Under the pieces are notes generated by a model. It saw nothing but the letters and a program-made list of their open reading frames with translations. It did not search any database and was not told the origin of the DNA. Both the position numbers and the translations under genes were made by a program. Positions 17,293 through 51,463 of a stretch of 64,000 bases of DNA are shown piece by piece. This stretch comes from a virus (taxonomy: Duplodnaviria > Caudoviricetes). Within the stretch, counting starts at the first letter, position 1; every line of letters starts with the position of its first letter. The stretch spans positions 50,916 to 114,915 of the IMG/VR virus record IMGVR_UViG_3300031998_000028. One strand, given 5' to 3'.

Positions 17293-17368
17293 GGGGGATT
17301 GGTGTTAGTGGCAAGCATGGCTGCCTTCCAAGCAGCAGGGGCCGGTTCGAGTCCGGTATCTCCTTCCA
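17293..17368 (+). tRNA. tRNA-Gly(TCC)
   Basis: cloverleaf, GCTGC-CTTCCAA-GCAGC, CCA end. Confidence 0.9.
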
Positions 17369-17443
17369 TAGACCCATACAGCAAAACTGTAGAAATGCAA
17401 TAAAAATATATTGGATATTTATGATTACATTTATAAGGGTCTA
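17369..17443 (+). ncRNA. CAGCAA-stem small RNA copy E1 (Y-RNA-like candidate)
   Basis: TAGACCC-ATA-CAGCAA...GGGTCTA terminal stem. Confidence 0.6.
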
Positions 17444-17487
17444 GTTTATATGGCGCGGTATCCCAATCGGAAGCAGGAAGTGGACTT

Positions 17488-18206
17488 TCGTTTTAAACGA
17501 TGAGAGCGCGCGGATGTGAAAACGCCGCGTGGATGCTGGCTAATTCGGCGAAAGACTCTATGAGTTAACGCCGAGCTAAAATTTGGAAAACACTTCAAAA
17601 AAATATAGTTGTGTCTTCCATTTTCTACTTTATAGTAGAACGGAGGATAAGAAATGAGAACTGATATTTTAGAGAAGCGTGAGCAAATTCTTACATGGAT
17701 TGCCGAAGGTAGAACAAAAACTTATATGTGTTAGGAATTGCACTGTAAGCCAGAAACTTTAAATAAATATTTAGAGAAAATGGAAATTGTTTATAATGGC
17801 AATCAAAGCGGCAAGGGCATACCTAAAGCTAAATATAAATCTACACTTGTTGAATATCTTGCAACAAGTTAGGATATTTAGACAAATAAAGTAAGGCTTA
17901 AGCTGTTACGAGAAGGTTATAAAGAACATAAGTGTGAGTGTTGTGGTTTAACAACCTGGTTAGATAAGCCAATTCCTTTGGAATTACATCACATTGATGG
18001 CAACCGACACAATAATACTATTGAAAATTTCATGCTTTTGTGTCCAAATTGTCATGCTTTTACTGACTCATATTGTGGTAAGAATAGCGCCAAATAAATG
18101 TGTAGAGACTATATACCAGCCTCCTAAGGACGGCGCGCCGTCTATGGAGAAGACATAGTCCAGACTACAACGCAGTAATGCGGCTATGGTGACATAGAGT
18201 AGTAAG
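17488..18206 (+). mobile_element. group I intron in the tRNA-Leu(UAA) anticodon
   Basis: U at the 5' splice site, terminal G, GTAGAGACT (R/P7) near 18102 and GAAGACATAGTCC (S) near 18149. Confidence 0.85.
17654..18097 (+). CDS. intron-encoded HNH homing endonuclease (TAG=Gln)
   Basis: CECCG..LELHHIDGNRHNN..N..LLCPNCH; three in-frame TAG; GGAGG RBS. Confidence 0.85.
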
Positions 18207-18379
18207 AAAATCCATTCAGTATGGGTTCGAATCCCATTCGCGCTACCAAGGATTCTTTTAATCCTCCTTTTTTCAAGTTTCTTTTTGGATGGGACGCGTA
18301 CGGCGTGGTGATGAACTGCTGAGGGCGCGCGTCATGTAAGTTGGGCGGGGCGGCTTACAAAAATTTTGAGGTATCCAAT

Positions 18380-18763
18380 ATGAGTGTTTCTTTATTTATT
18401 GCTCTTTTTGTGGGCGGCGGTTTTGTAAATATTTTATTAACCCAAGCAATCAAATAGTTTTATTATAATAGAAATGAAGCAGCAAGCCCAAACGTAATTG
18501 CCCTTGTAAATGCAATTATAATAGGTGGAGGAGGGACTGCTTTTGCCTATTCTTTATTAGGAATTGAATGGTCGCTAAATAATATTTTATGTCTTATTGC
18601 AATGATGCTATTTGTTTGGATGGGGAGTATGATTGGATATTCCAAAATTTTAGAGACTTATCGCCAATTCCGTACTTGGTAGATGCAAGTAAATTAGGGA
18701 AAAGATATAGTTGATGCAACGCAGGAACTCGTAGATAAAGTAAATAATGAAGAAAACGAATGA
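18380..18763 (+). CDS. holin-like membrane protein (TAG=Gln)
   Basis: three TM segments, open only with TAG=Gln. Confidence 0.6.
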
Positions 18764-18764
18764 T

Positions 18765-18840
18765 GTGGATGTAGCTTAATTGGTAAAGCGCCACCCTGCC
18801 ACGGTGGAGAGTGCGAGTCCAATTCTCGTCATTCACTCCA
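18765..18840 (+). tRNA. tRNA-Gly(GCC)
   Basis: cloverleaf, CCA end. Confidence 0.9.
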
Positions 18841-18843
18841 TAT

Positions 18844-18919
18844 GGGCAGTTAGCAAACTTGGTGGATGCGCGCGGTTGAAGCCCGTGAGAAAGAGGGTCG
18901 GTACCTCTACTGCCCACCA
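18844..18919 (+). tRNA. tRNA-Phe(GAA)
   Basis: cloverleaf, atypical T loop, CCA end. Confidence 0.8.
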
Positions 18920-18994
18920 AACCCTATAAATTTTGACTTTTTCTAAAATTTATGATATAATAATTATAGAAAGTTGAGAAAGGGGAATAAAGAA

Positions 18995-19180
18995 ATGAGT
19001 CCGTTTGATGATTTTGATACGCAGCGTCAGTCCGATGAGGACGCTTGGGAGCGTGAGTTCCTTGAGTGGTTCAGCAAGCAGATTTCTCCGTATAAGGTCT
19101 ATGAGATTGATTGTGATGACGGTACTCATGGAGACCTTATTTATGAGTGGACTGGCCATCCCGATTTTTCTCTTTCGTAA
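18995..19180 (+). CDS. small acidic hypothetical protein
   Basis: own promoter and RBS. Confidence 0.55.
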   Translation: MSPFDDFDTQRQSDEDAWEREFLEWFSKQISPYKVYEIDCDDGTHGDLIYEWTGHPDFSLS

Positions 19181-19182
19181 TT

Positions 19183-19258
19183 GGTGCCATCGTCTAGCGG
19201 TCAAGGATAGCAGACCCTCAATCTGCTGACACCAGTTCAAATCTGGTTGGCATCACCA
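19183..19258 (+). tRNA. tRNA-Glu(CTC)
   Basis: cloverleaf, CCA end. Confidence 0.9.
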
Positions 19259-19710
19259 GCCGTACCTTTAGTCTTTTGAGTTCGATAACGAGGAGAAAAG
19301 ACAGTGAGATTTGAGAGTATTCACTAATCAATAACTCTCCGGCGTTCTGGTGCGTCGTTAAGCTTAAAAAGCCAAACAGCCCTCGGCGGGTCAAGACACA
19401 ACGTAAAATAGTTGCCGCCATGTCCAAATGAATGGGTTATGACATTAAACTGTACTCGTTTCCGCGGCTTGGTGCTGCCGCGTCAAAAAAGTAATCCGGT
19501 GGAATAGAAAGTTCGGCCACCTACAAAATAATGGGAACAGTCGCGGGCGCGCGATGGTAAGAAATTACGTATCAAATGTTTTGCCAACTTCTCTTGGCTG
19601 CAAACAAGAGTGCGGTTGTTGCAGCAACCAAAACGTAGACCGGATGCGTTAAGACCGGCGGACATCTCGCCCGTTGAGGAGAGAAGAGTGGGTAAAAGAG
19701 CTAAATCCCA

Positions 19711-19818
19711 CCGCCAGAACATAAGGGCATATGGAATGGTTGGATGCTCGGGGCACCGTGGCCTTTTGCCAACACGGATGATACCTTGGAGACGTGGGTT
19801 CGAACCCCGCCCTGGCGG
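19711..19818 (+). ncRNA. enlarged tRNA-like element
   Basis: CCGCCAG/CTGGCGG closing stem, GTGGG-TTCGAAC-CCCGC T arm, extended D- and anticodon-like arms, no CCA. Confidence 0.45.
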
Positions 19819-20142
19819 CTTTGTGGCTGCTGGGTAGTTTAGAAGGTCAAAACACCAGGGACATTAATGGTCGCGTAGGGAACCTCCTCGTGGTGCGACT
19901 GGACGGACAGTAGTATGCGATTACTGAGCCGAGAACTAATTCCCAGATAGTTTCAATCTAATATCGCATAGGATTGAAGTGTACTCCCCTTAAGCCCAAG
20001 GGCGCAGGTTGTGACCAGCGATACAACAGTAACTCGGGATGCGCATGAAATTTCGGCTATAAGGTACACAGCGAGCCGTAGAAGCAGTACAGCTATCGAA
20101 TTAAAACTGGGGTAGCGGGCAGTATAATCATACCGCTAATAT

Positions 20143-20219
20143 CGCGCAGTAGTCGAATTGGCGAAGACGCCGGCCCTTCAAGCCGGAGATTACGGGTTCA
20201 ATCCCCGTCTGCGTGACCA
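20143..20219 (+). tRNA. tRNA-Glu(TTC)
   Basis: cloverleaf, CCA end. Confidence 0.9.
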
Positions 20220-20295
20220 GTAAGTTTGTCGGTATAATAAGACTTGAAAACCGTCGTTAAAAAGTTTAGCTAATCTTTGAGCTTCGGCTCTAAAT

Positions 20296-20372
20296 GGGCG
20301 AGTACCCCAATTGGGAGAGGGAATAGGCTCAAACCCTATGAAGTGTGGGTTCGAATCCCACCTGGCCTACCA
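20296..20372 (+). tRNA. tRNA-Leu(CAA), short variable arm
   Basis: ATAGG-CTCAAAC-CCTAT, CCA end. Confidence 0.85.
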
Positions 20373-20623
20373 ACGTTTTTATGAATTGGACGTTAATCAA
20401 TTCATCGTGTGAGAGGATGGATTTTCAGATTAAACTACCACTGGCGACGCCTCCAATGTCGATATGTGGCACAGTCATTTGAAAACACGTTAAACGAAAA
20501 CGAAAGTAAATCTGAACTAGATCGTGGAGTGATGCGTATGAAAATTACAAAAATCTCCGAAGGCGAGGAAACGCCGATTGGCTAGTAGAAGACCTGGGCA
20601 TGTCTTTAAACTGCCTACTATAT

Positions 20624-20699
20624 GGGCTGGTAGCTCTAATGGGAGAGCGTCTGCTTTGCACGCAGAGGGTTGTGGGTTCAAGTCCCATCTGGTCCACCA
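20624..20699 (+). tRNA. tRNA-Ala(TGC)
   Basis: cloverleaf with G3.U70, CCA end. Confidence 0.9.
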
Positions 20700-20912
20700 A
20701 TATGCGCGCCATATCGCATGGGGACGAGGACTGGAGCAACGTCCCAACAGGCATAAATAAATAAAGTCCCCAGGATGTTTTGCGGTATCAGTACATAACC
20801 GCCTCAAGAGCCGAAGTGTTTGTGGGTCTGTGCCTCTTATATGGCAATAGAGAGGAAACGAGAAGGACAAGGCGTGAAATCGGTTTGAAACGCGAAAAAC
20901 CCACATCTATAT

Positions 20913-20986
20913 CGCACCGTAGAGGAGCGGTCCCTTGCTAGGTTCATACCCTGGAGACGCAAGTTCGAATCTTGCCGGTGCTACCA
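20913..20986 (+). tRNA. tRNA-Met(CAT), initiator-like
   Basis: C1 mismatch at 1:72, CAT anticodon. Confidence 0.8.
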
Positions 20987-20989
20987 AAT

Positions 20990-21064
20990 GCCAGGCTAGC
21001 ACAATGGAAGTGCAATTCCTTCATACGGAAAAGGTTCTCGGTTCAAGTCCGGGGCCTGGTACCA
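20990..21064 (+). tRNA. tRNA-Met/Ile2(CAT)
   Basis: cloverleaf, CCA end. Confidence 0.8.
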
Positions 21065-21112
21065 GCGGCAAAGAATAGAACGCCGTAAACGTAAAAGGGA
21101 GGAATTTTACAA

Positions 21113-21418
21113 ATGAAGTATTTTAGTGAAAAAACGAACAAAACTTACGACACCGAAAAAGATTGCCTTTTTGCAGAAGCCGAATATGACAAAGCAATCG
21201 CTGAGGAAAAAATTAAAAAGGAAAGACTTAGTACAGAACGTAAGGCGCGCGCGAGCGAGGTCGAAGAAGCATACAAAGCAGTTCTCGAAGCATCAAAACA
21301 CTACAGAGAAAAGCTCAATGCTTTTGTAAAAGACTATGGCTCTTTTCATATGACTTTGCGGACTGGGGACGGAAATCCTTTTGATTTATTTGATAGGTTT
21401 TTTGACCGCTTTTGGTAA
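21113..21418 (+). CDS. coiled-coil hypothetical protein
   Basis: GGAGG RBS. Confidence 0.65.
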   Translation: MKYFSEKTNKTYDTEKDCLFAEAEYDKAIAEEKIKKERLSTERKARASEVEEAYKAVLEASKHYREKLNAFVKDYGSFHMTLRTGDGNPFDLFDRFFDRFW

Positions 21419-21462
21419 CTAAAAAAGTAGAAGAATTAATTAAAGCTTTTACTTGAAAGTGA

Positions 21463-21617
21463 AAGGCTCAGGCAGCAAAAAATTTTTTTGTAGGTCTTAC
21501 CTGCTTCTTGATATTGAAGATATATCACAACTGGATAATATATCGAGTTGTTCCACGTGGGCGCAATCACACGTTAAAAATGGTCGAGAACGCATTACTC
21601 GTAAAAACGTGAGCCTT
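21463..21617 (+). ncRNA. CAGCAA-stem small RNA copy E2 (multi-hairpin cargo)
   Basis: AAGGCTC-AGG-CAGCAA...GAGCCTT, about five internal hairpins. Confidence 0.55.
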
Positions 21618-21883
21618 GGATACTTAAAATTTGTAATTTCTCAAATTTTATGTTATAATTATTATAGAAAGTGAGAGAGGTACGAAGTACGAAGGCCTCT
21701 TGGCAACAATAACGAAGTATTTACCTCACTTCTGAACTCCGGTCTATCAAACGTAGTGGACACACAGTGCATATCTACGGGGTACGCGTTAAAGCGGAGT
21801 TTTGGGTAGAATATCATAGGGAATACACCTCATAAAGTCAGTAGCGTCGGGGCTGACTATAATTACAAGCCGGCGCGCCTTAT

Positions 21884-21958
21884 GGGTCATTAGTCCAATG
21901 GCAGAACGGCGGACTGTTAATCCGTATGTTACAGGTTCAAGTCCTGTATGACCCGCCA
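21884..21958 (+). tRNA. tRNA-Asn(GTT)
   Basis: cloverleaf, CCA end. Confidence 0.9.
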
Positions 21959-21965
21959 CATATGG

Positions 21966-22040
21966 TCCCCTATGGTGTAATGGTAGCATAGCTGGCTCTA
22001 ACCCAGCAGATACCCGTTCAAATCGAGGTTGGGGGTGCCA
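21966..22040 (+). tRNA. amber-decoding tRNA (CTA anticodon), probably Gln
   Basis: GCTGG-CTCTAAC-CCAGC; unpaired 1:72, G73, D arm resembles tRNA-Gln(CTG) at 25572. Confidence 0.9.
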
Positions 22041-22133
22041 ATAAAGGGGTAGCAAAGGAGTAATTAACCTTTGAGATAATGGCGCCTCTCACGTCAAGCC
22101 CGATAATATATATACTTAGGAGAGGTAAGTATT

Positions 22134-22865
22134 ATGAGTTGCGGCGTTTATAAAATTACCAATTTAATTAATAATCATTGCTATATTGGATAGTCTATTT
22201 ACATTGAACAGCGTTGGCGTAGACATAAATCTAATATTAATAATGCCAATGGAGAAGAATATAACTATCCTTTATATCGAGCAATAAGAAAATATGGAAT
22301 AAGTAATTTTTCTTTTGAAATATTAGAAGAATGTTTATCTTCATAGTTAAATGAAAGAGAACAATTTTATATCTCTTATTATAAACCTGAATATAATCAA
22401 ACAATTGAAGGTCAGATAACTGGTGGTTATATTAAATTAACTCCAATTACGCTTCAATCTCTTAGATAGGATTTATTAGATAATAAGTTACCTTATCGTG
22501 AGTTATCTTCAAAATATAATATTGGATTAGATTGTATTTCTAGAATTAATCAAGGCCATGCTTATCATGATGATAATATAAATTACCCGATAAGAAAAGT
22601 AAAAAGACTTGAATAGAAATATTGTCCTATTTGTGGAAAACCAATTCAACAAGATTCTACTATGTGCATTTCTTGTTATAATAATAGTAGAAGTTAGGCT
22701 CCTACAAAAGAAGAATTGTATAATACTTTGGTAAAATTGAACGGTAATTTTACTAAAGCAGGACAGTATTATAATATTAGTGATAATGGTGTTCGTAAAT
22801 GGTGTAAAAAATATGGATTGCCATATCATTCTAAAGACTATAAAAAAATTTTTGAAAGGAAGTAA
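22134..22865 (+). CDS. GIY-YIG homing endonuclease (TAG=Gln)
   Basis: GVYKITN..CYIG[TAG]S..EQRW; C-terminal Zn-finger/HTH. Confidence 0.8.
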
Positions 22866-22869
22866 TATC

Positions 22870-23061
22870 ATGCTCAATAAGTTTGCTAAAATCTATAACA
22901 TTAGTCCGAAGCCCGATTCCAAACGTCAACAGTGGCTTCGAGATAATGCGCGTACATATGACAGAGTAGTCTGCGCAGAATGCGGTGAAGGGCATACAAC
23001 TCTATATAAAGTTGGCGAGCAGTATTACTGCCTCGAGCATCGAAATAGAGTAGTGTCATAA
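22870..23061 (+). CDS. small Zn-finger protein
   Basis: CAEC..YCLEH. Confidence 0.5.
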   Translation: MLNKFAKIYNISPKPDSKRQQWLRDNARTYDRVVCAECGEGHTTLYKVGEQYYCLEHRNRVVS

Positions 23062-23072
23062 AGACACAATAT

Positions 23073-23163
23073 GCTGGGATAGTTTAATGGTAAAACAGCG
23101 GGTTTATACCCCGTAGCGCCAGATTAGCGGCTTTTCAGGGTTCGAGTCCCTGTCCCAGTCCCA
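23073..23163 (+). tRNA. tRNA-Ile(TAT) with long variable arm
   Basis: GCGGG-TTTATAC-CCCGT, about 20-nt variable arm. Confidence 0.75.
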
Positions 23164-23314
23164 CTTGGGAGGAAGAAGAAATTCGTTATACCTCCGAAGA
23201 GTATGCCGTTTAGTATTAAGGAGACTACATTCCGGCCATAATAGAATCAAACTCCGAAAATAGTGGACCTGCGGACGGAGTTTAAAAAATTAAATCCCGT
23301 CCGGCTTTTTATAT

Positions 23315-23390
23315 ACCGGGGTCATATAGTTGGTAAATATGCAAAACTGATAATTTTGTCACGTAGGTTCAAATCCTATCCCTGGTACCA
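23315..23390 (+). tRNA. tRNA-Ile(GAT)
   Basis: cloverleaf, CCA end. Confidence 0.9.
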
Positions 23391-23443
23391 GTGTCCGATT
23401 TACCATGGTCAGCCCGTTAGACCTTAAATAGCGGGATAGTTAT

Positions 23444-23518
23444 GGGCGTGTGGCGCAATGGTAGCGCAAGAAACTTTTAATTTCGAGGTTGTCGGTTCAA
23501 GTCCGGTCACGCCCACCA
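23444..23518 (+). tRNA. tRNA-Lys(TTT)
   Basis: cloverleaf, CCA end. Confidence 0.9.
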
Positions 23519-23521
23519 AAT

Positions 23522-23598
23522 GCGTCCGTCGCCTAATGGAAATGGCAAGTGGCTTCTACCCACTCAAAGTGCGGGTTCGACTCCTGCCGGGCGTACCA
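23522..23598 (+). tRNA. tRNA-Arg(TCT)
   Basis: cloverleaf, CCA end. Confidence 0.9.
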
Positions 23599-23714
23599 GT
23601 TCGTGTCCATATATGACGGTCATATCTTTAAGTGAGCAAGAGGTTCGATTCCCTTGGTGTCCGGGTTCGACTCCCGGGCGCGCCTGGTGGCAATAAATCT
23701 TAAAGCACGAATAT

Positions 23715-23789
23715 GCGTCTGTCGTTCAATGGAAAGGACAATGCTCTCCTAAGGCATAAATCAGAGTTCAAATCTCTGCGGGCGTACCA
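23715..23789 (+). tRNA. tRNA-Arg(CCT)
   Basis: cloverleaf, CCA end. Confidence 0.9.
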
Positions 23790-23845
23790 AATACTTTTAA
23801 GGGGTGATATTATGCTATAAATTCTATGTATAGGAGGATAGTATA

Positions 23846-24145
23846 ATGTCCAGAAGTTACAAACATCATCCTTTTTGCACTGACCGTAAGCATGGCGCAA
23901 AATGGTGGAAAAGTCAAGCAAATCGTAAAGTTCGTCATACTTTTAATATACCTAATGGTAAGGCATATCGTAAAGTTTATAATCCTTGGAATATTCGTGA
24001 TTATGTATGGTACGAAAGTCGTCATGGCGCGGCCGCCTGGTACAACCGTTATGTAACAAATGGTTATGATTGGTGGCGTGAGAAGTACCCTACTTTTGAG
24101 GATTATATGAACAACTGTTGGGCGCATGACTTCTATAGAAAATAA
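23846..24145 (+). CDS. basic hypothetical protein (MSRSYK type)
   Basis: AGGAGG RBS. Confidence 0.65.
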   Translation: MSRSYKHHPFCTDRKHGAKWWKSQANRKVRHTFNIPNGKAYRKVYNPWNIRDYVWYESRHGAAAWYNRYVTNGYDWWREKYPTFEDYMNNCWAHDFYRK

Positions 24146-24204
24146 AAATTTGATAAATCTTAAAAATTATGATATAATAATATTAGAAAGTGAGGGAAGA
24201 ACCA

Positions 24205-24372
24205 ATGGGCAGAGATAGACAAGAATTTAAAAAAAGTCCAGAGGAATTAACCGAGTACCTCATGTTTCGGCGCCGCGGCTCAATAGCCCCTTCCAAAAAG
24301 GGCCGCGGTAGCCCATATAAAAGAAACTCAAAACATAAGAAAAGAGAGGAAGAACGTAATGCCTTTTGTTGA
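24205..24372 (+). CDS. ArfA/BrfA-like ribosome rescue factor candidate
   Basis: MFRRR..SKKGRGSPYKRNSKHK resembles the ArfA FR.R...KKGKGSY.R..KH motif. Confidence 0.55.
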   Translation: MGRDRQEFKKSPEELTEYLMFRRRGSIAPSKKGRGSPYKRNSKHKKREEERNAFC

Positions 24373-24562
24373 TTGCTTTGCCTACTGCGGCATTGGCATG
24401 AACAAGTGCAAGAACAAGTATTGTTCGGCTAATCCGAACTATACAGCGCCGAAGCCTCGTGTGAAGCCGAAAGGTGGACCCGGCGCGCCATGTCATACGA
24501 CTCGTTCTAAAATCCGTAAGGACGATGGACGCGGTTATACGTACTGGCAATTCGAGGATTAA
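24359..24562 (+). CDS. small Cys-rich basic protein
   Basis: ORF overlapping the previous gene. Confidence 0.5.
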   Translation: MPFVDCFAYCGIGMNKCKNKYCSANPNYTAPKPRVKPKGGPGAPCHTTRSKIRKDDGRGYTYWQFED

Positions 24563-24580
24563 GCACCGAAAGGTGCATAT

Positions 24581-24655
24581 GGGTTACAGGTGTTATGGCG
24601 GCATAGCAGACTCTTAATCTGACAGGTCAGGGTTCAAATCCCTGGTAGCCCACCA
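24581..24655 (+). tRNA. tRNA-Lys(CTT)
   Basis: cloverleaf, CCA end. Confidence 0.85.
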
Positions 24656-24658
24656 AAT

Positions 24659-24734
24659 GCCCTTGTGGACAATCGGTAAAGTCGACAGCCTGTCACGCTG
24701 TAGGTAGCGGGGTCAGCACCCGTCAGGGGCGCCA
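24659..24734 (+). tRNA. tRNA-Asp(GTC)
   Basis: cloverleaf, atypical T loop, G73. Confidence 0.85.
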
Positions 24735-24831
24735 CTTAAAATTGGTCTAAAATAAAAATTGGGCTAATTCCCCAAAGTCAGATTTCTTCCAAAAATTATA
24801 TTCTCTTTTATATTTTTCTACTTATAAATGA

Positions 24832-24910
24832 CGGGAAGTAGAGGAAGAGGGACCTCGCCTGTTTTGGGAACAGGACATTAGTGCGGCTTCGAGTGCTGCC
24901 TTCCCGACCA
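24832..24910 (+). tRNA. tRNA-Pro(TGG)
   Basis: C1-G72, CCTGT-TTTGGGA-ACAGG. Confidence 0.8.
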
Positions 24911-24928
24911 ATTAAAGGAGAATATAAT

Positions 24929-25501
24929 ATGGGAAAAAGTTTGACATTAGAAGAAATTAACGCTCGTTTTGAGAATAGTTTTGATCAAAAGGTTATTGCA
25001 ACTAAATATTTAAATAAGCGTTCTCCAGTTGAATTAAAATGCTTAGAGTGTGGACATGAATGGTCACAACCGGCCGCATCTGTACTATTTAATGAGCATC
25101 ATAAATGTCCAAATTGCGGCATTGTTAAAAAGATAAAGCTTAAATGTGCTTATTGTGGAAAAGAAATTGAGCGATTTCCAAGCGACATTAAGGCAAATAA
25201 AACAGGTTATTTTTATTGTAGTCACACTTGTGGTAATCGTCATAAAAATCAATTACGCATGGAAAGTGGCGAATGGGACAATTCAGTAAATTATCGCTAT
25301 AAAGCTATGTATAATTTACCACATAAGTGTGCTGTATGTGGATGGGCAGAAGATGAGCGTATTTTAGAAGTTCATCATAAGGACGAAGATAGAAACAATA
25401 ATGCATTAGATAATTTAACCATTTTATGCCCAACTTGTCACAGAAAAATTACACTTGGGTACTATAAATTAACTGAGGATTATAAATTAATTGAGATATA
25501 A
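24929..25501 (+). CDS. Zn-ribbon HNH endonuclease
   Basis: CxxC repeats, EVHHKD.DRNNN.LDNL.ILCPTCH. Confidence 0.85.
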   Translation: MGKSLTLEEINARFENSFDQKVIATKYLNKRSPVELKCLECGHEWSQPAASVLFNEHHKCPNCGIVKKIKLKCAYCGKEIERFPSDIKANKTGYFYCSHTCGNRHKNQLRMESGEWDNSVNYRYKAMYNLPHKCAVCGWAEDERILEVHHKDEDRNNNALDNLTILCPTCHRKITLGYYKLTEDYKLIEI

Positions 25502-25571
25502 ATACTGCGGCGGCTCAGTTTGAATGGAGCGGTCTATATGGCTACTCTATGTTTATAACCGCCATTTATAT

Positions 25572-25645
25572 GGGCGATTGGTGTAACGGTAACACATTTG
25601 GCTCTGACCCAAAAGTTTGAGGTTCAAATCCTTAATCGTCTGCCA
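25572..25645 (+). tRNA. tRNA-Gln(CTG)
   Basis: cloverleaf, G73. Confidence 0.9.
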
Positions 25646-26075
25646 AAAGTCAGTAGGCAAGCATTAAAAGCCGAGAAGAAAATATAGTTCCTCAAGATAC
25701 TGTGGCTAGTTTGAGCCAAGGTATAATAAGAATTGGGACACCAGCGGAGAGAACCGCGCAGCTACTGGAGAGAAACCAGACAAAAAACATCTGTGCAACC
25801 CAATTGGAACTCGTGTGATTGAAACTGCACACCTGGCTTTAAAAATTTGATTTTCTATAAATTTTATGATATAATATTTATAGAAAGTAAGGGAAGAAAT
25901 ATCGCTCGCAGTTATAGTTCCGTGCGACTTGAACAAGGGTAAGAGCACCCCAGGACACTTACCTGGCTCCTATTGACACATGACGGAAGTCGGTGTAAAT
26001 CCGACAGCTTCTCTTCTTTATAAGTAAACCGGGGAGGTACTGAGACGTCCGGATTATCAAAAACCTCCGTTATAT

Positions 26076-26149
26076 ACCGCCATAGTGTAAAGGTAACACA
26101 GAAGCCTTTGAAGCTTTTGTTATTGGTTCGAATCCAGTTGGCGGTGCCA
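26076..26149 (+). tRNA. tRNA-Gln(TTG)
   Basis: cloverleaf, G73. Confidence 0.9.
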
Positions 26150-26152
26150 TAT

Positions 26153-26228
26153 GCCCGATTACCCCAACGGAAGAGGGAGCTGGCTTAGAACCAGTAAAGT
26201 GTGGGTTCAAATCCCATGTCGGGTACCA
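26153..26228 (+). tRNA. tRNA-Leu(TAG), short variable arm
   Basis: GCTGG-CTTAGAA-CCAGT. Confidence 0.85.
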
Positions 26229-26233
26229 AATAT

Positions 26234-26316
26234 GGGCGAGTTGAGCAATGGTGGCTCAGGAGTCTGTAAAACTCTGGTCTAACGACATGTAGGTTCAAGT
26301 CCTACCTCGCTCACCA
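26234..26316 (+). tRNA. tRNA-Tyr(GTA)
   Basis: cloverleaf with long variable arm. Confidence 0.9.
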
Positions 26317-26404
26317 TTTAAGCGACCGCTCTAAACGGTATGGGTGAAATCTAACCCATTGACAATGAGTGAAGGAACGTCACTCTGACGCTGTAATATT
26401 ATAT

Positions 26405-26482
26405 GCGCCAGTAGCTCAATGGAGAGAGCGCGGGGCCACGAACCCCGGACTTGTGGGAGTTCAAATCTTCTCTGGCGTACCA
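26405..26482 (+). tRNA. tRNA-Arg(ACG)
   Basis: CGGGG-CCACGAA-CCCCG. Confidence 0.85.
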
Positions 26483-26615
26483 ATAGTTGGGTTCCAGTAG
26501 AGACTGAAAAGGACCTTTGGTTCCAGATGACTGTTACCAAGCAGTACTTAGTATGTGTATCCTGTAGCTAAGGCGAGCCGGAAGTCGCGGGTTTCCGCCC
26601 AACTAAATTTTATAT

Positions 26616-26691
26616 ACGGATTTAGCTCAACTGGAAGAGCATTGCGTTTACACCGCAGAGGTTATGGGTTCAAGTCCCTTAGTCCGTACCA
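26616..26691 (+). tRNA. tRNA-Val(TAC)
   Basis: cloverleaf, CCA end. Confidence 0.9.
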
Positions 26692-26693
26692 TT

Positions 26694-26759
26694 AAGACCC
26701 GTACAGCAAATATAACTTACAAAACTGCAAATTTTTGGAAGAAGTTTTTATTGGGTCTT
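26694..26759 (+). ncRNA. CAGCAA-stem small RNA copy E3
   Basis: AAGACCC-GTA-CAGCAA...GGGTCTT; inner hairpin AAAA-CTGCAAA-TTTT. Confidence 0.6.
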
Positions 26760-26765
26760 GTATAT

Positions 26766-26852
26766 GCACGAGTGCTGCAATAGGAAGCCAGGCATGGTTG
26801 AGGTCCATGTGTCCGATAGGACATAGGGGTTCAAGTCCCCTCTCGTGTACCA
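26766..26852 (+). tRNA. tRNA-Leu(GAG)
   Basis: long variable arm, CCA end. Confidence 0.85.
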
Positions 26853-26880
26853 AATAACTAAAAAGAGAAGTGAGAAAAAA

Positions 26881-27357
26881 ATGATAAGTCCAACTCATGG
26901 AGAAATAACTCTGCGGCAGACCGCACTCTTAATCAAAAATTTCATAGAGTTAGACCCGGATTCACAATATGCAATCTATATTGGTTCTGATAGTCAAAAT
27001 ACTTACTACACCAAGATGGTAACTGTCATCGCAGTCCATAAGGTCGGCCGCGGTGGTCAGTACTTTTATGAGGTTTCCAAATACGACAAGATTCGTGATA
27101 TTCGCACGAAGCTTTATACGGAAACTCAACTTAGCTTGGATATGACAGGTAGGCTTTTTGATGAATTTGAAGCTCTTGGGTTTGAATATGATGCAGATAA
27201 TATCATGTTCTGTATTCATATTGACGCAGGTAACGGTGGTCCAAGTGGTCAAGTAATACCTGAAGTAGTTGGATATGTTCATTCTATGGGTTATAACTGC
27301 GAAGTTAAACCAGATAGTCCGATTGCTTCTTGTATTGCAGATAGAATAAGTAAGTAA
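26881..27357 (+). CDS. RNase H-like YkuK/DUF458 family protein
   Basis: IGSDSQ...VIAVHKVGRGG..E...S, IHIDAG..G.S, KPDS..AS..ADR. Confidence 0.75.
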   Translation: MISPTHGEITLRQTALLIKNFIELDPDSQYAIYIGSDSQNTYYTKMVTVIAVHKVGRGGQYFYEVSKYDKIRDIRTKLYTETQLSLDMTGRLFDEFEALGFEYDADNIMFCIHIDAGNGGPSGQVIPEVVGYVHSMGYNCEVKPDSPIASCIADRISK

Positions 27358-27364
27358 GTAAATA

Positions 27365-27453
27365 AAGGCGCGCACAGCTAAATCTATTATAGCATAATGG
27401 TAATGCACCCGACTTGTAATCAGGATATACGGTTCGAATCCGTTTAGCGCCTT
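27365..27453 (+). ncRNA. CAGCWA-stem small RNA copy E4 carrying a tRNA-Thr(TGT)-like body without acceptor stem
   Basis: AAGGCGC-GCA-CAGCTA...GCGCCTT encloses D arm, CTTGTAA loop and ACGG-TTCGAAT-CCGT. Confidence 0.65.
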
Positions 27454-27464
27454 GAATAAATAAA

Positions 27465-27537
27465 AAGACACTTGCAGCAAATCTTTTCTTTAATCGCCAT
27501 TGAATTATAATATTTTGATTAGATATTAGGGTGTCTT
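27465..27537 (+). ncRNA. CAGCAA-stem small RNA copy E5
   Basis: AAGACAC-TTG-CAGCAA...GTGTCTT. Confidence 0.6.
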
Positions 27538-27549
27538 GATACAAACTAA

Positions 27550-27665
27550 TAGACCCATACAGCAATCATTCTTATAGAGAATATGTTATTGGTTCGATTC
27601 CAATTATGCAAGCCATAAATTTTGCGTATTGAGCAATAGGTAGCTCAGTTCTACTAAAGGGTCTA
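27550..27665 (+). ncRNA. CAGCAA-stem small RNA copy E6 with circularly permuted tRNA-like domain (YrlA-like topology)
   Basis: TAGACCC-ATA-CAGCAA...T arm, loop-closed acceptor stem, D arm...GGGTCTA. Confidence 0.7.
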
Positions 27666-27718
27666 GTCTTTATCTCGACCGAGATAAATCATTTTGGAGA
27701 AAAAGGAGAAAATAAAAC

Positions 27719-29245
27719 ATGAATTTTACTAACGCTCTTGATAAGGAGTTCAACTATAAGTTGACCGAAAATGGCGGCCTTGCGCATAAGTCTACCTGTG
27801 ACGCGCTCTATGATATGTTTGCCCTGGGTGGCGCATATCGTAGTCGTAGCGATGAGGATTGTGTCTTCCTTTTCATGAAGGCATTTGAGGAAAGTCCTAC
27901 TTATGCTATGAAGTGCCTCTTCTATCTGCGTGACATTTTGCAGGGACAGGGCGAACGTCGCTTCTTCCGTGTCTGCATTAAGTGGGCCGCGGACAACCAT
28001 CCTTTGGAGATGGAGCGCAATCTCAAGTACGTACCGGAATACGGTCGTTGGGATGACCTATATGCCTTCGTAGGCACCAAGCTGGAAGCGAGTATGTGGG
28101 CCTTCATGTATGAGCAGTTCCGTCTGGATATGGCTTCCAAGACTCCTTCTCTGCTCGGAAAGTGGCTCAAGTCTGAGAATACTTCCAGCAAGGAGTCTCG
28201 CGTCCTTGGCGCAAAGACTCGTAAGGCTCTCGGTATGACTGCGCCTGCCTACCGCAAGGCTCTGTCTTCTCTTCGTAAGCGCATCAATGTCCTTGAGCGT
28301 CTTATGAGTGAGCGCCGTTGGGATGAAATCGAGTTCGATAAAATCCCTTCTAAGGCTGGCCTCATCTACAAGAACGCCTTCGCGCGTCACGATGTGGAGC
28401 GCGCCCGCAATAAGGCTGTGCAGACTTACGAGCAGTTCGCTAAGGATAAGAACACTAAAGTTAACGCCAAGGCTCTATATCCTTACGAGGTAGTCGAAAA
28501 GGCTATTGACGTGTTCGGTGGTATCTACTGGCGTTGGAACCGCCATGAAGTGCCTTTGGATGATACCAATCGTCTGATGGTCAACAAGTACTGGGAGAAT
28601 CTGGCAGAGTATATCTCTAAGCTGGATATGAACGCTCTTTGTGTTGTGGATACCAGCGGCTCTATGCATGGTACTCCTATTGACATCGCAATCTCTCTCG
28701 GTATGATTGCGGCTGATAAGGCTCATGGTCCTTTCCATGGACGCTACATCAGCTTCAGTTCTCGTCCTCAGCTCATTAAGGTTGAGGGTGTGGATTTCGT
28801 AGATAAGGTTCGCCGCATCTATGAAACCAATCTTTGCGAGAACACCAATCTCGAAGCAACTTTCGATATGCTTCTCAATGTGGCTCAGAAGAACCACATG
28901 AAGCAGAAGGATTTGCCAGATACCATTATCGTCATCAGCGATATGGAGATTGACTGTGCATATGGTGGCTATGGTTGGAGTTCTGACCATAGCGCGGCTC
29001 GTGCAAAGAACCGCACCATGATGGAGAATATGCGTCGTAAGTGGGCACGTGCAGGCTATAAGCTTCCTAAGATGGTGTACTGGAACGTGGATGCGCGCCA
29101 GGATACATTCTTGGATGATGGCCCAGACGTAACTTACGTTAGCGGTGCAAGTGCTATCTTGTTTGAGCAAGTCGCAAAGGGCATCACCGCGCAGGACCTC
29201 ATGTTCGAGAAGCTCGACAGTGAGCGTTACGCAAAAATAAAATAA
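27719..29245 (+). CDS. DUF2828-family protein with C-terminal vWA domain (Ro60/TROVE-like architecture)
   Basis: TENG, FYLRDI..GQGERRFF, EYGRWDDL, GKWLKSE; MIDAS DTSGS and ISDME; VYWNV. Confidence 0.8.
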   Translation: MNFTNALDKEFNYKLTENGGLAHKSTCDALYDMFALGGAYRSRSDEDCVFLFMKAFEESPTYAMKCLFYLRDILQGQGERRFFRVCIKWAADNHPLEMERNLKYVPEYGRWDDLYAFVGTKLEASMWAFMYEQFRLDMASKTPSLLGKWLKSENTSSKESRVLGAKTRKALGMTAPAYRKALSSLRKRINVLERLMSERRWDEIEFDKIPSKAGLIYKNAFARHDVERARNKAVQTYEQFAKDKNTKVNAKALYPYEVVEKAIDVFGGIYWRWNRHEVPLDDTNRLMVNKYWENLAEYISKLDMNALCVVDTSGSMHGTPIDIAISLGMIAADKAHGPFHGRYISFSSRPQLIKVEGVDFVDKVRRIYETNLCENTNLEATFDMLLNVAQKNHMKQKDLPDTIIVISDMEIDCAYGGYGWSSDHSAARAKNRTMMENMRRKWARAGYKLPKMVYWNVDARQDTFLDDGPDVTYVSGASAILFEQVAKGITAQDLMFEKLDSERYAKIK

Positions 29246-29270
29246 GGGAAGAGAAATCTTCCCTTTCCGT

Positions 29271-29352
29271 GCGTCCTTATCGTGGCCGGCTCCGCCTTGA
29301 AAGCGGCTGGTATCAGGGATGATATGGGGATCGACACCTCAGGGGCGCGCCA
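29271..29352 (+). tRNA. tRNA-Ser(TGA), non-canonical (8/4-compatible)
   Basis: CCGC-CTTGAAA-GCGG, long variable arm, G73. Confidence 0.7.
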
Positions 29353-29355
29353 TAT

Positions 29356-29440
29356 GCGGAGTTCGCCTAATGGTAGGGCAACAGTCTAGAAAACTGTCGG
29401 ATGAAAGTCTATGTGGGTTCAAGTCCCTCACTCCGCGCCA
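29356..29440 (+). tRNA. tRNA-Ser(AGA)
   Basis: ACAGT-CTAGAAA-ACTGT, long variable arm, G73. Confidence 0.8.
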
Positions 29441-29451
29441 ATTTATAATAT

Positions 29452-29540
29452 GCGCTGTGAACCAGTCGGGGTACTGGGCTAGCCTGCTAAGCTAAGTGTT
29501 CTCTTTTGGGAATTTGGGTCGGGACCAACGCGGCGCGCCA
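29452..29540 (+). tRNA. tRNA-Ser(GCT), 8/4 fold
   Basis: GCGCTGTG/CGCGGCGC 8-bp acceptor stem, TTGG/CCAA 4-bp T stem. Confidence 0.75.
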
Positions 29541-29542
29541 AT

Positions 29543-29618
29543 GGTTTGATAGTATAGTTGGTAATTATAAGGCACTTGTAATGCTTAGACCTCGGTTCAA
29601 ATCCGAGTCAAACCTCCA
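29543..29618 (+). tRNA. tRNA-Thr(TGT)
   Basis: cloverleaf, CCA end. Confidence 0.85.
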
Positions 29619-29639
29619 TATAAAACCTTCCAATAATAT

Positions 29640-29713
29640 GTACCCCTGGTGTAACGGTAGCATATCCGGCTCCAACCCGGCTGGTCAGAGTTCAAATCTT
29701 TGGGGGTATGCCA
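29640..29713 (+). tRNA. tRNA-Trp(CCA)
   Basis: cloverleaf, G73. Confidence 0.9.
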
Positions 29714-29750
29714 GCGCGCAAGCGTAAATTTTATTAAAGGCAGGTCAAAT

Positions 29751-31145
29751 ATGGAAAGCTTCTTTAATCTCAAGCATCGCAATACCACCATTAGAACCGA
29801 GATTCTTGCAGGCATTACAACCTTTATGGCTATGGCATATATCTTGTTTGTAAATGCAGGTATGTTTGCCACACTCCCCGATGTAAGTTATGAAGGTATG
29901 TATATTGCAACCGCAATTTCAGCCTGTGTCGGTTCTCTTTTAATTGGTCTTATTGCCAATCTTCCCCTCGCACAAGCATCTGGTATGGGACTTAATGCGT
30001 ATTTTGTCTATTCAGTATGTCTTGGTTTGGGCTTTACTTATGCTAATGCCCTTGTAATGGTTTTGTTTGATGGTATTATGTTTATAATACTCACAGCAAC
30101 AGGACTAAGAAAGCTATTGTTTAATGCAATTCCGACGCCAATTAAAACAGCTATTTCTGCAGGAATTGGTTTATTTATTGCTTATATTGGTCTACAATCT
30201 GCTGGTATTATAATTCCTGATGCCTCAACAGCATCCACTATGTCATCTTTTAATGTGTTTAGTGGAGCAGCAAATTGGGCAACAATTATGCCTATGCTTG
30301 TATCTATGATTACTATATTGATTATCGCGGCCTTGACATCTTTCAAGAAGCGTGGCGCGGTATTAATCGGTATAATTGCAGGTACAGTTCTATACTATCT
30401 TGGTGGCTTTACAATTCCAGGATTTTATGATGGTTTTGCTTTCTCTACTATTAGCACAGGAAAAGCTTTTGCAGCATTTGGTAAAGAATCACTATTCGCT
30501 GTATTTCGTAATGGTTTTGACTTTAGTGCGTACATTGCCGCACATGGCCAAGCAAACTTTGTTATGAGTCTTGTCACAACAATGATTGCGTTTTGTATCG
30601 TAGATATGTTTGATACAATGGGTACTTTGTATGGTGCGTGCTCACGCGGCGGCCTTATGAATAAAGATGGTGAAGTTCTTGCTCTTGACCGCGCAATGCT
30701 CAGTGATGCTATTGCCACCACAACTGGCGCAATGTTTGGTACTTCAACTGTAACAACTTTTGTTGAAAGTTCTGCTGGTATCGCAGAGGGCGGCCGCACA
30801 GGACTGGCCGCGGTTGTAACTGCTGGTCTATTCTTTATCTCAATGTTCTTTGCACCTATTGCTTCTCTTATCCCAGGCGCAGCAACTGCGGCCGCACTTA
30901 TCTATGTTGGCGCATTGATGCTTATGTCTCTTAAAGATATTAATTGGGAAGACGCAGAGGTTGCTATTCCGGCATTTTTAACTATTACTTTTATGGCATT
31001 TAGTTATAGTATTAGTAATGGTATTGGTATTGGTGTCTTGTCTTATACAGTAGTTAAAATGTTTACTGGTAAGATTAGAGAAATTCATGGAGCAACTTGG
31101 GTTATTGACGTGTTGTTCCTCGCAATGTTTTTACTTAGTCACTAA
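29751..31145 (+). CDS. NCS2 AzgA/PbuG-like purine permease
   Basis: TEILAGITTFMAMAYI, ASGMGLNAYF, DMFDTMGT, TTFVESSAGIAEGGRTG. Confidence 0.92.
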   Translation: MESFFNLKHRNTTIRTEILAGITTFMAMAYILFVNAGMFATLPDVSYEGMYIATAISACVGSLLIGLIANLPLAQASGMGLNAYFVYSVCLGLGFTYANALVMVLFDGIMFIILTATGLRKLLFNAIPTPIKTAISAGIGLFIAYIGLQSAGIIIPDASTASTMSSFNVFSGAANWATIMPMLVSMITILIIAALTSFKKRGAVLIGIIAGTVLYYLGGFTIPGFYDGFAFSTISTGKAFAAFGKESLFAVFRNGFDFSAYIAAHGQANFVMSLVTTMIAFCIVDMFDTMGTLYGACSRGGLMNKDGEVLALDRAMLSDAIATTTGAMFGTSTVTTFVESSAGIAEGGRTGLAAVVTAGLFFISMFFAPIASLIPGAATAAALIYVGALMLMSLKDINWEDAEVAIPAFLTITFMAFSYSISNGIGIGVLSYTVVKMFTGKIREIHGATWVIDVLFLAMFLLSH

Positions 31146-31191
31146 TAAAATTATAGTCCTCCTACTAGACTTTAAATAGTAGGATTTATAT

Positions 31192-31267
31192 GCTAGTATA
31201 GCTCAGAGGGAAGAGCACCTGTTTGGTATACAGGAGGTCGGGATTTCGAAACTCCCTACTAGCCCCA
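31192..31267 (+). tRNA. tRNA-Thr(GGT)
   Basis: cloverleaf. Confidence 0.85.
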
Positions 31268-31270
31268 ATT

Positions 31271-31345
31271 GCACCCATCGTCTAACGGCAAGGATACCGC
31301 TTTCGTAATGCGGAGATAAAGGCTCGAATCCTTTTGGGTGCGCCA
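31271..31345 (+). tRNA. tRNA-Thr(CGT) (Glu-like body)
   Basis: loop TTCGTAA in canonical register. Confidence 0.7.
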
Positions 31346-31348
31346 TAT

Positions 31349-31423
31349 GCAGGATGTGGTGTAACGGAAACATACGTGATTGTGGCTCACGAGTTGAGGG
31401 TTCAATCCCCTCCGACCTGCCCA
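31349..31423 (+). tRNA. tRNA-His(GTG)
   Basis: G-1:C73, cloverleaf. Confidence 0.85.
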
Positions 31424-31425
31424 AT

Positions 31426-31499
31426 GGGGAGTTAGTCTAATGGTAGAATAGGCGGTTGCAGCCCGCTTGGTGCTGGTTCAAATCCGGTATTCCCCTCCA
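31426..31499 (+). tRNA. tRNA-Cys(GCA)
   Basis: cloverleaf, U73. Confidence 0.9.
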
Positions 31500-50152: not shown

Positions 50153-51463
50153 ATGCCCAGAAATCGTTTACACCTAAATTTCGAACTCGAATCAGACGTA
50201 GACCGCGCCCAGTTCATTCAAGAGTATATAGCCGGCTTAACGTTTACGCCTACCGAAGCAGAGCTCGAAACAATTTCAAATTATATACTTTGGGGTAAGA
50301 CTTCCAATGGGAAAAACGCTCAGCAGCAAGGCGAAATCGAAATCAAAAAATGGGCAGAAAAACCCGTCGAGTCACTTGAAGCATTAGCAGAAGCCCCTGG
50401 ATTTTCTGAGACTTCTCTGCGGCCGCTCAATGAACCACCGACACGAATTCAACGTATTGTTTTTGATAGATAGCTAGCATTACAATAGGCGCCACCGTAT
50501 TTATAGTAGGTTTATACGGATTTATTTCGATAGATAGATGAAATCGAATTAGAACTTAACTACTATGAATTATGGGTTGGGAAACGCAAACTGCCGCCGC
50601 GCGAAAAACTCGAGCAATCTTTTACAGAAGAAGAACGCTAGTCCCTCAATGAAAAAGCGCAGGCTCTTTCGTAGTTTAAGTACTTAAAGCTGCGGCATTT
50701 ACTTGTTGAACTGCGCGCATAGTAGTATACATATTATGATACATATACCACAAAAATAATTCCCCATCCAGGTGCGCGCCAGCCCGTTCTTATGAGCGAG
50801 GTTTTATTTATTGGAGAGGATATAAGTATATATCCAATTGGCCTAAAGGATAATACCTCACTTTCAGCAAAACTTTTTAGGGATGATAGGGAACCCGCAC
50901 CACCCGACTTTACAGAAGAGGATTTGAAGTAGATTTCAGACCTTTTGTGGAAGCCACAGACAACTCAATATATAGACTTTACAAAGCCTGAGCATGTATT
51001 AAGTATTTATTTATCTAGGGCTGATTTGCGCGACACCGTATTAGAAGACCCCGATGGTCTATACGGAGCGGCCGCCCGCATTTTAGATACATTGGAATAC
51101 TATGAAAAACGTGCTAATCTTACACCGCTTTAGAAAGACCTTTTGGAATTAAAGCTAAAGAATATACCAAACTTAGAAATTGCGAAATACTTAAATAAAA
51201 CATATAACAAAACTTATAACGAGAACTATATTTCTACTATCTTTCACTAGAAGATTATTCCTTCTATCGCGGCCGCGGCATAGGCGCATCGGGAGATATT
51301 AGAAAATATTTTTTATTCAGAGAACTTTAAAAAGTGTAAAGATTGCGGCCGAGTGCTACTTATGACCAGCGATAATTTTATGAAATAGAAAAAATCGTCT
51401 GACGGCTTTGCGCCACGTTGTAAGTAGTGTGAAAAAATTAAAAGGAGTGCAAGAAAAGCATGA
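50153..51463 (+). CDS. putative transcription regulator (sigma region-4-like HTH + C-terminal CxxC) (TAG=Gln)
   Basis: LTPL[TAG]KDLLELKL..PNLEIAKYLN; CKDC..CK[TAG]C; about 15 TAG. Confidence 0.6.

Follow-up and report, generated by a model that had tools for sequence, protein, structure and literature searches.

Analysis of a 64,000-nucleotide stretch of DNA from a large gut phage (Duplodnaviria; Caudoviricetes), hereafter the window, which covers positions 50,916 to 114,915 of IMG/VR record IMGVR_UViG_3300031998_000028 and forms the final 64 kb of this 114,915-bp, 96% complete record, identified six short elements that are probably genes for small structured RNAs. These RNAs probably act as direct, Y-RNA-like partners of the adjacently encoded Ro60-like protein, a member of the DUF2828 family that carries a von Willebrand factor A (vWA) domain. 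The RNA family is real, its closing stem covaries, and its linkage to the gene is tight even in lineages far removed from one another, while the modelled protein has the fold of Ro60. Since the pairing of this RNA with this gene recurs in unrelated phages and bacteria, it most likely represents an undescribed branch of the Ro60/Y-RNA particle. We infer direct binding of the RNAs by the protein, their processing to discrete molecules and a physiological role for the resulting particle.

A first-pass annotation of the window had described six elements that share a 7-bp terminal stem followed 3 nt later by a CAGC(A/T)A hexamer, three of them lying in tandem directly before the DUF2828 gene. A strict scan for a perfect 7-bp stem, 3 nt, CAGC[AT]A and the reverse complement of the stem at most 300 nt away, which together with a covariance model replaced a very relaxed motif scan whose output was mostly noise, returned all six with every one of these features at the positions proposed (E1 to E6, Table 1). 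All six lie on the same strand, spanning 17369-27665, and the tandem group consists of E4-E6, located 54-354 nt upstream of the DUF2828 open reading frame (ORF). In addition, a G directly follows the 3' stem strand in 6 of 6 elements, a feature absent from the earlier annotation. Block shuffles of the window yielded about one match of any stem for both strands together (maximum 4), and the six stem types had no occurrence in the other 51 kb of the genome. A seventh strict-scan match, at 30084-30211, has an AT-rich stem inside a permease ORF and was missed by the covariance model; it was rejected as a chance match.

The covariance model, R1, was built by aligning 47 short copies found at 30 loci, most of them in phages other than that of the window. 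When run on the 64 kb, it recovered five of the six elements and nothing else. Although the three short window copies E1, E3 and E5 were part of its training set, E6 (E 1e-4) and E4 (E 0.007) were not, and both were among the elements recovered. The remaining element, E2, was missed owing to its long insert, and it is the least certain copy because its spacer ends in G where the usual letter is A.

Table 1. Positions in the window of the six RNA elements, the DUF2828 gene and the surrounding tRNA genes.
Feature	Positions	Strand	Size	Stem	Details
E1	17369..17443	+	75 nt	UAGACCC/GGGUCUA	spacer AUA; CAGCAA; 3' G at 17444; begins right behind the CCA of tRNA-Gly(UCC); fold z -4.5; R1 47.1 bits
E2, probable handle RNA	21463..21617	+	155 nt	AAGGCUC/GAGCCUU	spacer AGG; CAGCAA; 3' G; long structured cargo; fold z -3.1
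E3	26694..26759	+	66 nt	AAGACCC/GGGUCUU	between tRNA-Val and tRNA-Leu; R1 49.2 bits
E4	27365..27453	+	89 nt	AAGGCGC	CAGCUA variant
E5	27465..27537	+	73 nt	AAGACAC/GUGUCUU	AU-rich cargo; R1 47.1 bits
E6	27550..27665	+	116 nt	TAGACCC	fold z -3.4; R1 34.3 bits (outside training set)
DUF2828 + DUF7788 gene	27719..29245	+	508 aa		N-terminal helical and C-terminal vWA domain; predicted Ro60-like fold
MIDAS motif DTSGSM	28649..28666	+			residues 311-316
33 tRNA genes	17293-31499	+			array in which the six elements and the DUF2828 gene are embedded

The elements almost certainly belong to a genuine RNA family that is linked to the DUF2828 gene, referred to below as handle RNAs. To assess the family beyond the window, 80 viral loci were sampled around DUF2828 homologs of 55-97% identity. 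On the gene strand of these loci, a perfect 7-bp partner was present at 139 of 416 CAGCAA sites, with G as the next base in 123 of the 139, as compared to 12 of 368 sites on the opposite strand, where G was next in none. There are 55 distinct stems, in which positions 5-7 use all pair types. The 47 short copies of the R1 alignment come from very different phages and bacteria, yet they anchor cleanly at both ends: the hexamer letters C, A, G, C and A and the 3' G are invariant, an A precedes the hexamer in at least 90%, and all seven stem pairs show two-sided changes. As these copies were chosen for perfect stems, their pair counts could only come out as "100% paired"; unbiased evidence for the stem comes from the controls by strand, shuffle and whole genome. 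Overall, copies are 52-173 nt in length, begin with A, U or G as the first stem base and mostly have A as the first spacer base. Rfam 15 contains no family for the handle RNAs of the window or of nine related loci.

Co-occurrence with DUF2828 genes, which the first-pass annotation had named as a check on its proposal, turned out to be strong and specific, including at loci that have no tRNA array. This linkage spans phages of Bacillota, Actinomycetota, Pseudomonadota and Campylobacterota as well as bacterial chromosomes. A tblastn search placed DUF2828 homologs in 705 of 50,697 GenBank phage records, and in all seven unrelated isolated phages that were opened, 2-5 copies of the RNA lie beside the gene and on its strand. 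Three copies lie in a 395-nt gap directly upstream of the gene in Listeria phage AG20, and upstream copies are also found in Bacillus phage Izhevsk (5 copies), Campylobacter phage F370 (2 copies, directly upstream) and Enterococcus phage EFGrNG (3 copies). The copies instead follow the gene in FelixO1 (4 copies just downstream, in a tRNA array), in mycobacteriophage Itos (3 copies directly downstream, ahead of a terminator and with no tRNA array nearby) and in Staphylococcus phage S-CoN_Ph2 (3 copies directly downstream, with no tRNA array at the site). On bacterial chromosomes, Tumebacillus and several Clostridium species carry a single copy 100-200 nt upstream of the gene, and across the whole genomes of C. 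gasigenes and Clostridium sp. MB05, 4 Mb each, the sole R1 matches (E<=0.01) are located 57-130 nt upstream of it.

The linkage was also evident in two further tests. In a control of five phages, presence of the RNA equalled presence of the gene in 5 of 5: FelixO1 and KVP40 have both, KVP40 having originally been picked as a negative and carrying its handle match about 7 kb from the gene, while T5, T4 and Bxz1 have neither. Bxz1 is tRNA-rich and encodes a canonical Ro60. In the second test, which started from the RNA, the handle pattern was run over viral contigs; the gene was present within 28 of 80 stretches themselves and, on inspection of whole records, in 31 of 50 further records, including 15 of the 17 that are at least 90% complete. 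The 705 of 50,697 GenBank phage records serve as the base rate for comparison. In one of the two records of at least 90% completeness that lack the gene, the pattern match is not complementary.

Two further observations came from these loci. In S-CoN_Ph2 (L086 6513-6602) and FelixO1 (L081 9619-9870 and 10414-10644), small coding sequences annotated as "hypothetical protein" or "unknown" overlap handle copies, and these are probably mis-annotations. A contig binned as a metagenome-assembled genome of Promethearchaeota (Asgard) encodes a DUF2828 homolog of 39% identity with one handle copy directly upstream (L234 4784-4903); this member of the bin may be viral.

The protein encoded beside the tandem copies matches Pfam families PF25043 (121 bits, cut-off 27.1) and PF11443 (99 bits, cut-off 29), and its vWA MIDAS (metal-ion-dependent adhesion site) motif, already noted in the first-pass annotation, is intact. 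A set of 54 diverse homologs shows no variation at residues D311, S313, S315, T376 and D408, and the MIDAS residues align in hhalign with DRSGSM / ITDEQ of Bacillota TROVE proteins. An AlphaFold2 model computed with 35 homologs (predicted local distance difference test score, pLDDT, 75; predicted template-modelling score, pTM, 0.72) consists of an all-helical N-terminal domain and an alpha/beta C-terminal domain. When this model was compared with the PDB using Foldseek, the top 13 matches were all Ro60 proteins, from Thermus phage phiLo, Xenopus, Deinococcus and human (E 9e-8 to 5e-4). Similarly, the top 10 matches by VIA-align were all Ro60 (Z 12.6-14.4, root-mean-square deviation 4.6-6.2 Å), with 373-402 residues aligned across residues 10-508, while the next matches, at Z 8.9 or below, covered vWA domains only. 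DUF2828 is a large family, with more than 6,000 clusters at 50% identity in a single-sequence search; the DUF2828 clusters returned by an atlas look-up were only viral, the source being silent on eukaryotes.

Some mycobacteriophage homologs are already named "Ro-like RNA binding protein" or "RNA-binding protein" in GenBank, so the Ro-likeness of the protein is not new; what is new is its proposed partner RNA family. The papers searched describe neither a partner RNA nor a structure or function for this protein family. Itos gp54, for instance, belongs to the same protein family (35% identity over its full length) and is Ro-like by annotation name only. LeBron gp53, which is likewise annotated as "Ro-like" and may or may not be of the DUF2828 type, is toxic on overexpression (PMC13148394).

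The proposal that the interiors of the elements include tRNA mimics is borne out for E4 and E6 by an Rfam tRNA match, arm layout and covariation. Inside E4, a tRNA-like body has its arms in the normal order: the D-arm comes first, then an anticodon-like arm bearing UGU and finally the T-arm. This body lacks an acceptor stem of its own; it matches the Rfam tRNA model at 42.3 bits over model positions 5-66, and its orthologs keep the D- and T-arms while the anticodon-like stem covaries. In E6, a covarying T-arm is followed by a hairpin and then a D-arm, so that the arms are permuted in the same way as in the tRNA-like module of YrlA, and this layout is common to the long copies of Itos and FelixO1. 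Overall, a T-loop motif is present in 48 of 157 copies, and at least one such copy occurs in 32 of 62 loci.

There is precedent for a pairing of this type. Phage and bacterial Ro60 proteins bind adjacent Y-like RNAs via a short 5' motif (PMC4201824; PMC12135203): bacterial Ro60 binds Y RNAs mainly via the 5'-strand motif GNCGAA (PMC4201824), and for Ro60 of phage phiLo, whose Y-like RNAs carry the motif CGAA, both binding and a complex with polynucleotide phosphorylase (PNPase) have been demonstrated (PMC12135203). Like Ro60/Rsr, which is found with YrlA/YrlB, Yrn1 or phiLo Yrl1/Yrl2 (RF02553), the DUF2828 protein is about 500 aa long and, in its predicted structure, combines a helical (HEAT-like) ring with a vWA/MIDAS domain, and in both systems, including their phage-borne examples, several small RNA genes adjoin the protein gene. 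[quoted passage not shown] The combination of one long tRNA-like copy in which the T-arm precedes the D-arm (E6) with shorter copies reproduces the pattern of YrlA and YrlB. On the other hand, copies are more numerous here (up to 6) than at Ro60/Y-RNA loci, and their cargo is more varied, including as it does a tRNA body in normal order.

A second resemblance is to the Class I RNAs of dictyostelids, which combine a short stem that covaries, an 11-nt motif left unpaired, with C6, C9, A10 and A11 conserved, and a variable interior (PMC7919456), and for which the search pattern GTTGRCCTTACAGCAA...GTCAACTG has been used (PMC5054030). As in the handle RNAs, compensatory changes occur in the short closing stem, an unpaired motif ending in ACAGCAA comes right after its 5' strand, the interior is variable, a conserved G stands in a short 3' tail and there are many copies per genome. 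Class I RNAs differ in that they are eukaryotic genes with their own Dictyostelium upstream sequence element (DUSE) promoter, are 42-65 nt long, and have an invariant 5' G and a conserved U at motif position 3. They have been stated to be unique to dictyostelids (PMC7919456), and no paper was found in the literature that links DUF2828 to any RNA, Class I RNAs included. It could be that DUF2828 and its handle RNAs constitute an ancient and widespread sister branch of Ro60/Y RNAs in phages, bacteria and eukaryotes, with the Class I RNAs as eukaryotic members and a DUF2828 protein as their missing partner, but we regard this extension as doubtful.

By analogy to Ro60, we propose a particle in which the 5' and 3' ends of each RNA would be closed in the 7-bp stem, with unpaired (A)CAGCAA exposed beside it on the 5' strand and the G following the 3' strand. 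The ring-shaped protein would bind this common handle, much as Ro60 does the 5'-strand motif of Y RNAs, and the variable interior would be presented as cargo. The tRNA-like module of E6 or E4 could recruit tRNA-recognising enzymes or exonucleases, or could stand in for tRNAs, while a short copy would, like YrlB, occupy the protein or act as its gate. In a phage with 33 tRNA genes, the role of such a particle would most likely be quality control, protection or turnover of tRNAs and other structured RNAs during infection. A narrower role, tied specifically to defences that target tRNAs, such as the decoy or repair function put forward in the first-pass annotation, is a tentative suggestion at this stage.

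Several observations weigh against a Ro60-like particle of this kind. The structural model is of middling confidence, as its pLDDT indicates, and its TM-scores to Ro60 are about 0.5. The protein has no match to Pfam TROVE (PF05731) at E<=0.01, and no TROVE match was obtained anywhere in the phage genome in a search in which control genomes matched; sequence searches of the PDB also found no Ro60. In hhalign, comparison with a TROVE profile made from two Bacillota sequences only gave 88% probability (E 3e-6), confined to the vWA half, and this value came with a more diverse profile, a shallower comparison having given 12%. Thus, of the suggestion in the first-pass annotation that DUF2828 is a divergent Ro60-like protein, the predicted fold over both helical ring and vWA domain stands, but sequence kinship to TROVE is detectable in the vWA half alone. 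Given the missing Pfam match and this partial profile homology, we class the protein as Ro60-like in fold and architecture and not as a member of TROVE.

The RNA side has its own discrepancies. Unlike Y RNAs, which carry GNCGAA(N0-1)G or CGAA near the 5' end, the handle RNAs have (A)CAGCAA three nt after a 7-bp stem, and the YrlA model (RF02553, gathering threshold 69 bits), applied with a limit as loose as E<=10, matches none of the six; its only weak hit, at 19771-19880, lies outside the family. A true handle is present and a DUF2828 match absent in two viral records that are fairly complete (L126 and L150), several Clostridium homologs of 25-30% identity have no strict handle, and the look-alike Class I RNAs are reported to bind a protein with an RNA recognition motif (RRM) in Dictyostelium, DdR-21 doing so directly with Rnp1A (PMC7919456). 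Three unnamed proteins co-purify with DdR-21. Finally, the phage genome encodes neither RtcB nor an Rnl2-type ligase, so that any repair role would rely on host enzymes.

An alternative is that the RNAs, though real, serve a partner other than DUF2828. This could be PNPase of the host or a different exonuclease, an RNA-binding protein from host or phage, or tRNA-processing enzymes, in which case DUF2828 would merely be co-inherited in an RNA-metabolism module. The binding of DdR-21 by Rnp1A and the two records that have a handle and no DUF2828 gene fit this explanation, as does the frequent location of DUF2828 amid tRNA and RNA-repair genes, which in Listeria AG20 include RtcB, an RNA ligase and phosphoesterases. 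However, the DUF2828 gene is the sole one adjoining the RNAs in all lineages examined. The RNaseH-like DUF458 neighbour was present in no more than 7 fetched loci, and the phage studied here lacks both RtcB and Rnl2. Clostridium chromosomes carry the RNA at most about 130 nt from the start of DUF2828 and at no other site, and the protein has the predicted fold of a known binder of RNAs with a stem plus motif. We consider a different partner unlikely.

Another possibility is that the elements act in cis within the DUF2828 transcript, as leader or trailer structures or as autoregulatory sites that control its expression, and not as free-standing RNAs. In many loci the copies fall in what would be the 5' leader, as in Listeria, Campylobacter and Clostridium, or the 3' trailer, as in Itos and Staphylococcus, and separate promoters are not evident in the window, where promoter and terminator signals around the locus did not rise above shuffles. 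Yet E1-E3 lie 1-10 kb from the gene among tRNA genes, the KVP40 match is similarly remote, copies occur on both sides of the gene, and a simple operator would have no need of diverse cargoes with conserved tRNA-like modules. We regard a purely cis-acting function as quite improbable. Still less probable, and in our view very much so, is that phage tRNA arrays use the elements for punctuation or processing, or that they are tRNA genes of such arrays in decay, in either case with no relation to DUF2828. Their tRNA-gene-like spacing in the window, the position of E1 right after a CCA and of E3 between two tRNAs, and the combination of a 7-bp terminal stem with a discriminator-like G speak for this reading, but the tRNA-rich phages T5, T4 and Bxz1 lack the RNA along with DUF2828, and in Itos, the Staphylococcus phage and Clostridium chromosomes the RNAs adjoin the gene where there is no tRNA array. 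A Ro60-like protein with directly bound handle RNAs is the reading we favour, and those parts of the first-pass interpretation that computation could address all held up.

The region surrounding the elements contains a number of other features. Between tRNA-Leu and E4, positions 26881-27357 encode an RNaseH-like protein (PF04308, formerly DUF458; 147 bits). This neighbour was considered as a core partner and rejected, since its presence in only 7 fetched loci, those of the closest relatives, indicates that it is not a core part of the system. A gene of the xanthine/uracil permease family (PF00860, 124 bits), an unusual auxiliary gene for a phage, lies at 29700-31145 between tRNA-Trp and tRNA-Thr. 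An HNH endonuclease ORF at 17654-18097 (region 17444-18260, also 21965-22040) contains three in-frame TAG codons; together with a suppressor tRNA with anticodon CUA among the tRNA genes of the array, these indicate that TAG appears to be read as a sense codon, at least there. The flanks of this ORF resemble 5' and 3' tRNA parts, with a T-arm and ACCA near 18215-18250, and the locus may represent a tRNA gene interrupted by an intron that carries a homing endonuclease. The tRNA-Ile (anticodon UAU) at 23073-23163 is a full-length Rfam match of 91 nt, a length that implies an insertion or a long extra arm, atypical for tRNA-Ile.

Between two tRNA-Glu genes, a GC-rich and ORF-poor stretch of about 880 nt (19260-20140) is a candidate large structured RNA. 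It matched no Rfam family and is kept in related phage contigs, at 93% identity in L272 and in blocks in L273 and L274, with a covarying hairpin at 19612-19632 and invariant core blocks. In the window and in L272, a YrlA-like tRNA-like module is inserted at 19771-19880 (Rfam YrlA 23 bits, below gathering). A candidate handle copy around this weak match (19612-19874, CAGCAA at 19622) was rejected because CAGCAA there is an arm of the covarying hairpin in related phages and is not conserved.

DUF2828 is a large family whose carriers include such model phages as FelixO1, KVP40 and the A511-like phages of Listeria. With a conserved partner RNA it would gain a molecular role open to testing, and the biology of Ro60 and Y RNAs would be extended by a second branch, borne by phages and much larger. 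Handle RNAs would also explain many unannotated gaps, as well as some spurious small ORFs, in phage tRNA regions. For the Class I RNAs of Dictyostelium, which are unexplained, the common handle supplies a concrete hypothesis, and the presence of cargoes that resemble tRNA suggests a part in the struggle over tRNAs in which phages and host defences are engaged.

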